From Tuberibacillus sp. Marseille-P3662 (GTDB lineage: Bacteria > Bacillota > Bacilli > Bacillales > Sporolactobacillaceae), in assembly GCF_900178005.1 (NCBI RefSeq), contig NZ_FXBS01000006.1, positions 1,395,585 to 1,459,584 on the forward strand: a DNA stretch of 64,000 nucleotides. Direction: 5' to 3'. Below the pieces are notes generated by a model. That model did not search any database. It was not told where the DNA came from and saw only the letters and a list, made by a program, of their open reading frames with translations. Position 1 is the first letter of the stretch. Every line of letters begins with the position of its first letter. This document shows, one piece after another, positions 51,334 to 53,731 of this stretch. The position numbers and the translations under genes were made by a program.

Positions 51334-52074
51334 TCATTGTTGCGAATGCTTAAAGGCTTCTAGTTCGCGTTTCGCTTTAGGATCTAATGCTTGTAATTGC
51401 TCATCAAGCTTCTGGGAAGCGTAGTTGTATAACTGCCGATCCAAAGCATTTTTTTCTTCGACTTGGTCAATGATGAATTGAGGAAATTGATGCTTTAATG
51501 GCCGCTTCTGATTCACGTTTCGCTTTTGATATTGAGTATTTTTCCATCCCAAGGTTTGCTTCATTAAGAAAATGGATTCGTCAAAACGTTCAGTTAAGCC
51601 CGCAACAGAAAAGAAATTTTGCAAATTGTATTTAGCTGTTTCTAGATCAGGCGTATGATCGCCACAAATGAATCGGGTCTGTAAATTAGACGTGAGATAG
51701 TTATAAGGATATTCTTGACTGTTGATATAATCACTAAAATTACCGGCAAAATGGTCATATTTCGGACTTCTGTAACGGAAGTAAAACCAGGAAATCACTT
51801 GCTCAACGGGATCACGCAACATCGTAATATACGTAAAGGGGCCTGTTATATATTGGTGACCTCCAAACCAATAATGTCCACAAAAAGTATCCGCCTTCTC
51901 AATTTGGTCTTTATAATCTAAGATGCCTTGAGGAGACCATCCTTTACCCCGGAAATGGACATTATTCGTGTACTGACCCGTAACAATATCTGTTAAAGTT
52001 GTGCCTCCCGTTTTCATAATATGCAGTAAAAAAAGTAAGCGCTTGTCGTTATCGATCATCTCATGTTGACTCAT
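51334..52074 (-). CDS. Sulfotransferase-family protein
   Basis: It has HIMKTGGTT (a 5'-PSB-like P-loop) and MLRDPVEQVIS (a 3'-PB RDP motif), typical of carbohydrate/NodH-type sulfotransferases. Confidence 0.55.
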   Translation of the reverse strand: MSQHEMIDNDKRLLFLLHIMKTGGTTLTDIVTGQYTNNVHFRGKGWSPQGILDYKDQIEKADTFCGHYWFGGHQYITGPFTYITMLRDPVEQVISWFYFRYRSPKYDHFAGNFSDYINSQEYPYNYLTSNLQTRFICGDHTPDLETAKYNLQNFFSVAGLTERFDESIFLMKQTLGWKNTQYQKRNVNQKRPLKHQFPQFIIDQVEEKNALDRQLYNYASQKLDEQLQALDPKAKRELEAFKHSQQ

Positions 52075-52096
52075 ATAAACACCTCATTTGTTTTTA

Positions 52097-53731
52097 TTAA
52101 GCCAATTTCTTGACATTAAGATGGGTGTATTCACATGTGTGCCCACCATTCCAAACCAAACGCAACTCCTTGAGTAAATCAGCCTGTTCTGGCGTGAAAT
52201 GAACGGTTAATTCGATGGTGTTAGCACCTGGTTTGACATGAGAAATCGTCTGTGATTTCAAGACACTATATTGAGGATTCCAAATACCGAGTGAGAACGC
52301 GCCTAATGACGACCGGGCAGCATGATCACTATTCAATTCAATGGAGAAGCGATATCTTCCAGGCGTTAACTGTCTAATGTGTTCTGCGATCAACATCCCT
52401 GGAGCATCTTTTCTTTGTTCCACTCGGCGAGATAGGAATTTTCCGTGATGATTATAGATCATTTTTCCTGTCATAGAGCCAATATTTTCTGATCTAAATG
52501 TCACGGTTTGTCCCGGTTCTGTCGGCAAATCCTTGTGAATGACATTGGGACGAAAAGCATCTTTTTTCAAGACATTAAAGGCCGCTGGCTGGGCATATTG
52601 CTGAGTTCTGTGTTGACTAACATAGGGCGCAATATCGTCGATAAATTTTTTGGTTCTTGCTAAAGCAGCATCTCGACTGAAAATCTTACCCAAAACTTGT
52701 GACTGTTCACGAGCAAGTTGTTCAAGTGCTGTAAAATCATGATAATGCGACTGGACAAATTGTTTCATTTCCTGTGGATTACTGCACATCCCGATCGTCT
52801 TTAATTTGGCTCGACTCACGCTGTGATCGCGGGCCTCTTGGGCCAAACCTGATTGCTCTAAGAAAACGACGGGCACCCCCATTTTTATCGCCTCGATCGG
52901 GGTATAATGAAGATGGTAATTGGAACCCAGCCCGAAATAAACAAACATCCGGCTGTGGGCGATTTTAGAAAAAAATTGCTGATCATTAAGATGTCCTAAC
53001 ACTTTATCTGACAGACCTTTAACGGCATGCTTCGAGTTTTTCCCTAATACAACATAAGGTATATCCCCAAAGCGTTCAGCAAAGTCTTCATAGATCTCGC
53101 GTGCTTGCGGATTACCGTCAAGATAAGAAATTGTTGTACTTAAATAAGGTTGGGATTGATCTTTGGCCCATTGAAATCCTAGACGCTCTTGGGACACAAA
53201 CGCATTGAGATAAAACTTATTCTTACTGAGTTGTGGAAGTTCTCGCTTGCCTAGACTACTTAAGATCGGCGACCAGACATATTTGTCATTTGCCACAACC
53301 TGATCGATATTAACATTCAATCGCCTGAGCTGTTCGGTGTATGTGGTGTAATCACCGTGTCCAAAGACTCTAAATACAACATAACCTTGAAACCATTTTG
53401 ACACATTTCCTAAAATTTCCGGATAATTGGAAATAAAGATAACGTCAACCCATTGATTAAAAAATGATGCCTCTTCAGGGGTCAGTGCGCCTTTCTTTCC
53501 TAATATATCGATACGCCTCAGTTTTTCAACAATATGCGTAGGTAAAGTGCACGATTTTCGCCAATGCGGGTATAAACGAGCCGTTTCATTCTCATAATCA
53601 GGATCATATTTTAACCAAAATGACTCACCAAGACCGGGAATCACCTCAGCTCCAGCTTCCATGAGCAACGGGACTTCTTCATATCGTAATGTTTGATGCG
53701 TGCATAACCAAAATATCCTAGGAGATTTCAT
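52097..53731 (-). CDS. Hypothetical protein with GT-B-like segment and C-terminal beta-rich domain
   Basis: The 544-aa product has no firm family. The segment HYTPIEAIKMGVPVVF resembles the GT1/GT4 C-terminal motif. It sits inside the glycan operon. Confidence 0.4.
   Translation of the reverse strand: MKSPRIFWLCTHQTLRYEEVPLLMEAGAEVIPGLGESFWLKYDPDYENETARLYPHWRKSCTLPTHIVEKLRRIDILGKKGALTPEEASFFNQWVDVIFISNYPEILGNVSKWFQGYVVFRVFGHGDYTTYTEQLRRLNVNIDQVVANDKYVWSPILSSLGKRELPQLSKNKFYLNAFVSQERLGFQWAKDQSQPYLSTTISYLDGNPQAREIYEDFAERFGDIPYVVLGKNSKHAVKGLSDKVLGHLNDQQFFSKIAHSRMFVYFGLGSNYHLHYTPIEAIKMGVPVVFLEQSGLAQEARDHSVSRAKLKTIGMCSNPQEMKQFVQSHYHDFTALEQLAREQSQVLGKIFSRDAALARTKKFIDDIAPYVSQHRTQQYAQPAAFNVLKKDAFRPNVIHKDLPTEPGQTVTFRSENIGSMTGKMIYNHHGKFLSRRVEQRKDAPGMLIAEHIRQLTPGRYRFSIELNSDHAARSSLGAFSLGIWNPQYSVLKSQTISHVKPGANTIELTVHFTPEQADLLKELRLVWNGGHTCEYTHLNVKKLA

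Follow-up and report, generated by a model that had tools for sequence, protein, structure and literature searches.

A sulfotransferase and a divergent GT-B glycosyltransferase candidate encoded in a putative perosamine glycan operon of Tuberibacillus

Within the 64,000-nucleotide stretch of Tuberibacillus sp. Marseille-P3662 analysed here (contig NZ_FXBS01000006.1, positions 1,395,585 to 1,459,584; referred to as the window), two neighbouring minus-strand open reading frames (ORFs) encode proteins of 246 aa (51334-52074) and 544 aa (52097-53731). They are 22 nt apart, are present exactly as described in an earlier note made from the sequence alone, and lie inside a 13-gene minus-strand operon (62231 to 48713) whose genes are separated by -26 to 130 nt. 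We consider it probable that both belong to an operon for glycan assembly in the cytoplasm and contribute to a sulfated N-acetylperosamine/rhamnose glycan, possibly on the spore surface, the location being the weakest step, as it is drawn from gene context. Both proteins are 100% identical to database entries of the same strain, annotated as a "sulfotransferase family 2 domain-containing protein" and a "hypothetical protein", respectively. According to its sequence and structure model, the 246-aa protein is a sulfotransferase of the type using 3′-phosphoadenosine 5′-phosphosulfate (PAPS), belonging to the Sulfotransfer_2/Gal-3-O-sulfotransferase superfamily and resembling HS2ST, HS6ST and Gal3ST, and it is predicted to transfer sulfate. 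The 544-aa protein fails sequence-level membership of glycosyltransferase (GT) family GT4; we classify it as a divergent GT-B glycosyltransferase, with predicted GT4-like activity and a tail resembling a carbohydrate-binding module (CBM).

In regard to the 246-aa protein, two Pfam gathering cut-offs are passed, those of PF06990 (Gal-3-O-sulfotransferase, 33.2 bits vs 27) and PF03567 (Sulfotransfer_2, 26.9 bits vs 22), and no NCBIfam model is matched. The protein carries LLFLLHIMKTGGTTL and ITMLRDPVEQVISWFYF. The PAPS-binding-like motifs pointed out in the earlier note proved to form a conserved core in an alignment of 36 homologues, where H18, G24, R87, P89 and S95 do not vary and K21, T22, T25, G66, H67 and H73 each reach a conservation of at least 90%; judged by this alignment, the conservation of the motif residues is not due to chance. 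The 5′-phosphosulfate-binding (5′-PSB) loop, HIMK21TGGTT, aligns with the PSB of heparan sulfate 6-O-sulfotransferase (HS6ST) and 2-O-sulfotransferase (HS2ST), and the 3′-phosphate-binding (3′-PB) segment, R87-D-P89...S95, aligns on RDPIERLVS of HS2ST. Compared as a profile, the family reaches E 7.8e-26 with HS6ST and E 6e-21 with HS2ST. In the profile alignment, the near-invariant G66-H67 falls on the "HGH" of HS2ST, whose His residues are catalytic, and H67 is a candidate for the catalytic base.

The AlphaFold model of the protein (pLDDT 91.7, pTM 0.90) finds its best Foldseek match in HS2ST (4ndz, E 5e-10, TM 0.66), and among the PDB matches listed, the top 50 all have the sulfotransferase fold, solved with PAP or PAPS wherever a cofactor is named; two among them are a sulfotransferase-like retinol dehydratase. 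A kinase or other P-loop identity was ruled out, every significant sequence and fold match being a sulfotransferase, and the sulfotransferase assignment of the earlier note is thereby upheld. Its likeness to NodH was imprecise, as the relatives are of HS2ST/HS6ST/Gal3ST type. NodH belongs to PF13469 (PMC11625862), and a NodH-type identity was rejected since this family is not matched at E <= 0.01 and the PSB holds a Lys and is not of the RxG type.

The 246-aa protein is thus a new member of a known superfamily, already auto-annotated as such, and its homologues are not rare in genomes of Bacillota (Paenibacillus, Halalkalibacterium, Virgibacillus, Priestia and others). This qualifies the rarity of sulfated glycans in Firmicutes stated in the earlier note, although we found no report of a sulfated spore glycan, or of perosamine, sulfate or sulfotransferases at endospore surfaces, in the searchable literature. 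Sulfated glycans are known from few bacteria, and only about six bacterial genera were reported to have sulfated polysaccharides in a 2024 review (PMC11625862).

A Logan contig (SRR17023268) with the gene order of the window holds two sulfotransferase paralogues (11660-12370 and 14120-14890), which share 48% and 40% identity with the protein of the window and flank the gene of a GT4 glycosyltransferase with a DUF4214 domain (DUF4214-GT4). Such a pair hints at two sulfation positions.

The 544-aa protein, described earlier as having no clear family, has indeed no significant sequence match in Pfam, NCBIfam or PDB. Its sole Pfam match, PF20706 at residues 278-347, is sub-threshold (15.6 bits vs 26, E 0.008), the cut-offs of PF00534, PF13692 and PF13439 are not reached, and one distant family member shows a marginal overlap with PF13524 (24.8 vs 25). 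The structure model (pLDDT 88.7) presents two alpha/beta domains, a low-confidence linker at residues 381-391 and an all-beta C-terminal domain at residues 405-544, and the two Rossmann-like domains make up a GT-B fold of GT4-like appearance. The conserved unit of the family covers residues 1-375. The GT4-like motif of the earlier note, NYHLHYTPIEAIKMGVPVVFLEQSGL, is real: H273, H275, P278, E280 and P287 are invariant in 22 members of the family, and H12, N92, G116, G124, G230, H273, E280, P287 and G314 in 40 members with identities of 18-37%. The segment H273-L-H275-Y-T-P-I-E280-A-I-K-M-G-V-P-V resembles the GT4 segment E-A-M-x-x-G-x-P-V, and the family motif can be written as H273-x-H275-x4-E280, its register relative to GT4 being taken from a weak hhalign alignment (E 0.13) and inspection. 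Furthermore, distant members are fused to canonical Glycos_transf_1 (GT4) modules or to FkbM methyltransferase domains. The protein represents a small GT-B family outside the Pfam and NCBIfam models with an unusual active-site motif, and the earlier proposal of a novel glycosyltransferase remains a good candidate on the strength of the modelled fold and the separate beta domain.

This C-terminal domain, also recognised as distinct in the earlier note, follows the disordered linker and is, by secondary structure and pLDDT of the model, a putative CBM-like jelly-roll. In a Foldseek search with the full-length model, it was locally matched by the porphyran-binding CBM 8xmz (138 columns, E 5e-7, TMt 0.62), as well as by CBM6E and Cry5B domain III. 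No PDB or Pfam sequence match was obtained for it, even at permissive thresholds.

A word-indexed search of 5.8 billion proteins gave 28 relatives of the 544-aa protein, all from Bacillota where named (Bacillus cereus, Priestia megaterium, Maledivibacter, Paenibacillus), and a profile search of 1.84 billion representatives gave 529 clusters (50% identity) at E <= 1e-3, 90 of which reach E <= 1e-30. In a scan of one genome per species, covering 185,579 species, the family was found in 12 loci only, with three Bacillus, Maledivibacter, six Paenibacillus, Cohnella and two distant Bdellovibrionaceae as hosts. When the window and metagenome contigs are included, 18 distinct loci can be counted, and within a neighbour distance of 10 kb a homologue of the GDP-perosamine synthase Per was present in 14 of the 18, the perosamine N-acetyltransferase PerB in 12 and DUF4214-GT4 in 13. 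In both Bdellovibrionaceae loci the family gene directly follows per and DUF4214-GT4 is missing. On the basis of this linkage to per across phyla, GDP-(N-acetyl)perosamine is proposed as the donor of the 544-aa protein. Three tandem paralogues stand directly after gmd-perB-per in Maledivibacter halophilus (L002 6629-11638), and in Bdellovibrio sp. a protein of 877 aa, in which the GT-B domain occurs twice, stands directly after gmd-X-per (L019 9998-12631). Both arrangements suggest a multi-linkage or polymerising transfer of perosamine.

The sulfotransferase is limited to the closest subclade, in which the 544-aa protein is at least 57% identical, and the order 544-aa gene, sulfotransferase, DUF4214-GT4 is common to the window, Priestia and two metagenome or run-assembly contigs. 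In Paenibacillus loci without a sulfotransferase, a WcbI-family protein (PF18588) adjoins the 544-aa paralogues (L004 13268-14077; L008 13429-14238); it may be an alternative glycan-modifying enzyme in the same role.

Related to the sulfation step, a motif scan of the related loci revealed an ATP sulfurylase (Sat) gene at the head of three Bacillus loci. The sulfate-activation module is located at the following positions:

L023 2446-6126, Bacillus cereus GCA_016483475.1
L021 7501-11182, Bacillus rhizoplanae
L011 23-1270, Bacillus pseudomycoides

The head shared by B. rhizoplanae and B. cereus consists of a Na/sulfate-symporter-like transporter (597 aa), adenylyl sulfate (APS) kinase, ATP sulfurylase, a GT4, Gmd and Per, and in both species the sulfotransferase and DUF4214-GT4 lie further along the same contig. 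In the B. cereus cluster, a further DUF4214-GT4 precedes the sulfotransferase and the 544-aa glycosyltransferase comes last, and in that of B. rhizoplanae the sulfotransferase is preceded by a DUF1796 protein and followed by an additional GT4. The reading frame of Sat overlaps the start of the next GT4 gene in the Bacillus clusters, B. pseudomycoides included, and the cluster Sat is a second paralogue, with 94% identity between cluster copies and 67% to another Sat of B. cereus. That the homologous Bacillus clusters include such a private sulfate-activation module argues strongly, on comparative grounds, for a sulfation step dependent on PAPS, and it indirectly supports a PAPS supply for the sulfotransferase.

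The operon of the window comprises the following genes, all on the minus strand and given in the order of transcription, with the 544-aa gene divided into its two domains:

61518-62231, minus, RmlA-like, first operon gene
60634-61509, minus, RmlD-like
60201-60656, minus, RmlC-like
58859-60172, minus, GT2 glycosyltransferase of 437 aa with a C-terminal extension (PF00535; 45% homologue in the B. rhizoplanae cluster)
57812-58804, minus, Gmd, GDP-mannose 4,6-dehydratase (TIGR01472, 448 bits vs cut-off 415)
56614-57681, minus, ManC, mannose-1-phosphate guanylyltransferase (PF00483, PF22640)
55515-56639, minus, canonical GT4 glycosyltransferase of 374 aa (PF00534, PF13692)
54871-55518, minus, PerB-like perosamine N-acetyltransferase of the PglD/NeuD family (E 1e-51 to 4ea7; TIGR03570, 208 vs 160.8)
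53766-54884, minus, Per, GDP-perosamine synthase of the DegT family (E 3e-137 to the Caulobacter crescentus perosamine synthetase, 3bn1/3dr4)
52598-53731, minus, 544-aa protein, N-terminal ~378 residues, predicted divergent GT-B (GT4-like) catalytic domain
52100-52519, minus, 544-aa protein, residues 405-544, all-beta, putative CBM-like jelly-roll by structure model and Foldseek
51334-52074, minus, predicted soluble PAPS-type carbohydrate O-sulfotransferase of 246 aa (Pfam, conserved residues, profile, fold)
49579-51318, minus, DUF4214 + GT4 glycosyltransferase of 579 aa (PF00534, PF13692; PF13946 weak)
48713-49534, minus, GT2 glycosyltransferase of 273 aa, last operon gene (PF00535, E 7e-30)

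The three Rml-like names are given by ORF size, position and tblastn to rml homologues in the related loci. The best NCBIfam match of ManC, TIGR01479 (E 8e-81, 272 bits), is under its 373-bit cut-off, and a counterpart of the 374-aa GT4 is kept in the Bacillus clusters, directly after Sat. The mechanical ORF of Per has 427 aa and starts at 55049 (53766-55049), overlapping the whole 3′ part of perB; since homology to the solved Per enzymes starts about 60 residues in, the true start is probably an ATG at 54884, 54878 or 54863. With a ManC-type enzyme, Gmd, Per and PerB all present, the operon covers the full route from mannose-1-phosphate to GDP-N-acetylperosamine, and by homology to solved or curated enzymes these four would make GDP-N-acetyl-D-perosamine, while RmlA/C/D would, likewise by homology, contribute to dTDP-L-rhamnose. 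The operon lacks rmlB, and Gmd is the sole 4,6-dehydratase that could be detected in the window. The dTDP-glucose 4,6-dehydratase step must therefore be encoded elsewhere; alternatively, the RmlA/C/D-like enzymes use a different nucleotide sugar. Five of the operon products are glycosyltransferases, namely two GT2, one GT4, DUF4214-GT4 and the 544-aa protein. Transmembrane segments are absent from all 13 proteins (maximum 19-residue hydropathy <=1.64), and, by Pfam families and hydropathy, no flippase, polymerase, ABC transporter, oligosaccharyltransferase or initiating phosphoglycosyltransferase is encoded in the operon.

A sigma-K-type motif, AC-N16-CATAtgaTA, is positioned at 62279-62305 on the minus strand, its end lying 47 nt before the start codon of rmlA, and a second one, AC-N17-CATAgcgTA, at 58809-58836, before gmd. 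In Paenibacillus tarimensis, one well-placed motif of this type precedes manC. CotX genes flank the Priestia locus and YkvP-like glycosyltransferase genes flank the B. cereus-group loci, and to our knowledge all Bacillota hosts found are endospore formers. At 7-19 kb from the operon, the window holds CotH, CotG-like, CotB-like, small acid-soluble spore protein (SASP) and SleB-like genes, most of them within a spore-coat island at 32600-38600 with a GC content of 34-38%; the CotG-like, CotB-like and SASP labels come from reading of the translations:

32615-32815 and 38367-38585, plus, two alpha/beta-type SASP genes
32867-33184, minus, CotG-like Ser/Arg/Lys-rich ORF
33559-34266, plus, CotB-like protein with a basic Ser/His/Lys tail
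36077-36757, plus, 226-aa protein
36798-37871, minus, CotH kinase
41479-42042, SleB-like LysM hydrolase

In the explanation that we favour, the five soluble glycosyltransferases would build a perosamine/rhamnose(/mannose) glycan. The 544-aa protein would act as an active, sequence-divergent GT4-like GT-B transferase, with GDP-(N-acetyl)perosamine as the most likely donor, and its C-terminal jelly-roll may serve to hold either the acceptor or the glycan as it is extended. The 246-aa enzyme would bind PAPS via K21 of the 5′-PSB and R87/S95 of the 3′-PB and, with H67 as a putative general base, O-sulfate a sugar hydroxyl of the glycan, rendering it polyanionic. As membrane, export and initiating proteins are missing, the motif is of sigma-K type and the host forms endospores, assembly most likely takes place in the mother cell, where it could proceed directly on crust or exosporium material with cytoplasmic PAPS at hand. 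In its most specific form, the proposal is tentative and rather less secure than its general outline: spores of Tuberibacillus, Priestia megaterium and members of the B. cereus group would be coated with an O-sulfated glycan containing N-acetylperosamine, made and sulfated wholly in the mother-cell cytoplasm, with the CBM-tailed GT-B protein as perosaminyltransferase and, in Bacillus, the private module of sulfate uptake, APS kinase and ATP sulfurylase supplying the sulfotransferase.

Several observations weigh against this explanation, and they have to be considered along with its rivals. The same enzymes could serve another compartment and time, producing an envelope glycan of vegetative cells, for example a capsule, a secondary cell-wall polymer or the glycan of an S-layer glycoprotein. 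Modules for rhamnose and GDP-sugars typically belong to S-layer and O-antigen-like clusters, as in Paenibacillus and Geobacillus, and the 544-aa family also occurs in the non-sporulating Bdellovibrionaceae, beside gmd and per. In addition, the sigma-K motif is short and not enriched, with three matches in the window on both strands vs about 3.9 expected, so that the argument rests on placement, not on number: two of the three stand directly upstream of operon genes in the right orientation, as consensus matches only. The heads of the Bacillus clusters yielded no such motif, and those of the related loci no consistent matches. Nevertheless, a vegetative glycan, although a rival to be taken seriously, seems unlikely to us, because all 13 proteins are free of transmembrane segments and neither an ABC transporter, Wzx/Wzy, a phosphoglycosyltransferase nor an oligosaccharyltransferase is present, and because the Bacillota hosts are, as far as we know, sporulating and several of the loci have spore-coat genes nearby.

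As for the two proteins themselves, the 544-aa protein could transfer another sugar (mannose or rhamnose) or be a non-catalytic glycan-binding scaffold or chain-length regulator with a GT-B shell, to which its CBM-like tail would be suited. The first Glu of the GT4 EX7E motif is missing, Tyr272 being found eight residues before E280, and the family profile gives no significant alignment to the canonical GT4 of the window (hhalign, same E 0.13). Since, moreover, no GT family is matched in sequence, the predicted catalytic activity is drawn from fold and conservation only. DUF4214-GT4 is almost as constant a neighbour as Per and could be the perosaminyltransferase instead, and the members from Cohnella, Paenibacillus tyrfis and Paenibacillus sp. 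A3 have no per within 10 kb. We still find a role other than perosaminyl transfer somewhat doubtful: invariance of H273, E280, G230, P287 and G314 among such distant members is an active-site pattern, tandem paralogues and fusions of two GTs are features typically seen in functional transferases, and the Bdellovibrionaceae gene lies next to per in loci devoid of DUF4214-GT4. Regarding the sulfotransferase, it is present in only 7 of the 18 loci, and on the B. rhizoplanae contig it occurs with no 544-aa homologue detected; an obligate partnership of the two proteins was ruled out on these grounds, and they are thus independent modules. Neither sat nor cysC was found in the window by a motif scan and Pfam scans, which covered most of the larger ORFs outside the operon. 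An acceptor cannot be read from the sequence, as the substrate-binding regions of the superfamily are not conserved (PMC11625862), and the enzyme could act on a small molecule, a lipid or a protein tyrosine, its place in the operon being incidental. This appears very improbable, given that the position between the 544-aa and DUF4214-GT4 genes is kept in Priestia and two metagenome or run-assembly contigs, that the Bacillus clusters place the enzyme among glycosyltransferase genes together with the dedicated PAPS module, and that its closest solved relatives are polysaccharide O-sulfotransferases.

The proposed sulfated perosamine/rhamnose glycan can be set beside several known systems. With HS2ST (3f5f/4ndz) and HS6ST (5t03), the 246-aa protein shares the PAPS-binding fold, the 5′-PSB Lys and a 3′-PB of the RDPxxRxxS type, and its candidate catalytic His aligns with the HGH of HS2ST; unlike them, it is soluble, bacterial and devoid of a type-II membrane anchor, with identity of about 20% and substrate-binding loops that are not comparable, and its acceptor is certainly not heparan sulfate. 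NodH, KpsS and Stf0 are bacterial and PAPS-dependent as well and sulfate glycans or glycolipids, as is predicted for the 246-aa protein. Rhizobia carry the dedicated PAPS-synthesis genes nodPQ, to which the cysC-sat module of the Bacillus clusters is analogous. However, NodH (PF13469) and Stf0 (PF00685), as assigned in PMC11625862, stand on superfamily branches different from that of the 246-aa protein, PF03567/PF06990. The 544-aa protein is 10-14% identical to the GT4 enzymes BshA, PimA, PglA/WlaC and MshA, and differs from them by the extra CBM-like domain, the lack of a significant Pfam GT match and the absent first Glu.

The same Gmd, Per and PerB are used in the pathway of Caulobacter crescentus and E. 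coli O157, and the Per and PerB of the operon match the solved Caulobacter enzymes. In those organisms, perosamine goes into the O-antigen of lipopolysaccharide via lipid-linked, exported intermediates, whereas the Tuberibacillus operon encodes no export machinery. It resembles the spore-crust polysaccharide genes sps/cge of B. subtilis in having a candidate sigma-K-type motif and rmlA/C/D-like genes, and in encoding soluble enzymes of GT2 type but nothing for export. The B. subtilis sps genes serve assembly on spore-surface material in the mother-cell cytoplasm. Compared to them, the operon is without a legionaminic-acid module and adds the perosamine module, the sulfotransferase and the 544-aa glycosyltransferase candidate, and its spore role is deduced.

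If true, the proposal would provide the first case of a bacterial spore carrying a sulfated glycan, together with a new glycosyltransferase family. A sulfated coat glycan would alter the charge, hydration and adhesion of the spore surface and possibly its recognition by hosts or phages, and the prediction of a sulfated perosamine-containing spore glycan should be of interest to spore and glycan specialists. As the cluster is present in the tractable B. cereus group and in Priestia megaterium, it is also directly testable. Owing to the perosamine linkage across two phyla, a specific donor can be hypothesised for a GT-B family that is as yet unclassified, and a compact soluble bacterial relative of the animal HS2ST/HS6ST could serve as a model enzyme or biocatalyst.

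Two further features border the operon. The intergenic region upstream of both the minus-strand rmlA-like gene and a plus-strand gene at 62932 is filled by a 104-bp tandem repeat (62365-62793, 4.1 copies, 94% identity), every unit of which contains the palindrome GACACATACGTGTC and, after it, a run of T. An Rfam search of this region gave no match, and the repeat might be mobile or might represent an operator or terminator present in several copies. Immediately past the end of the operon, at 44713-48625, a PRD-domain LicR/MtlR-like activator (663 aa) and phosphotransferase system (PTS)-like EIIBC and EIIA are encoded, labelled from reading of the translations; these genes are probably unrelated to the glycan operon.

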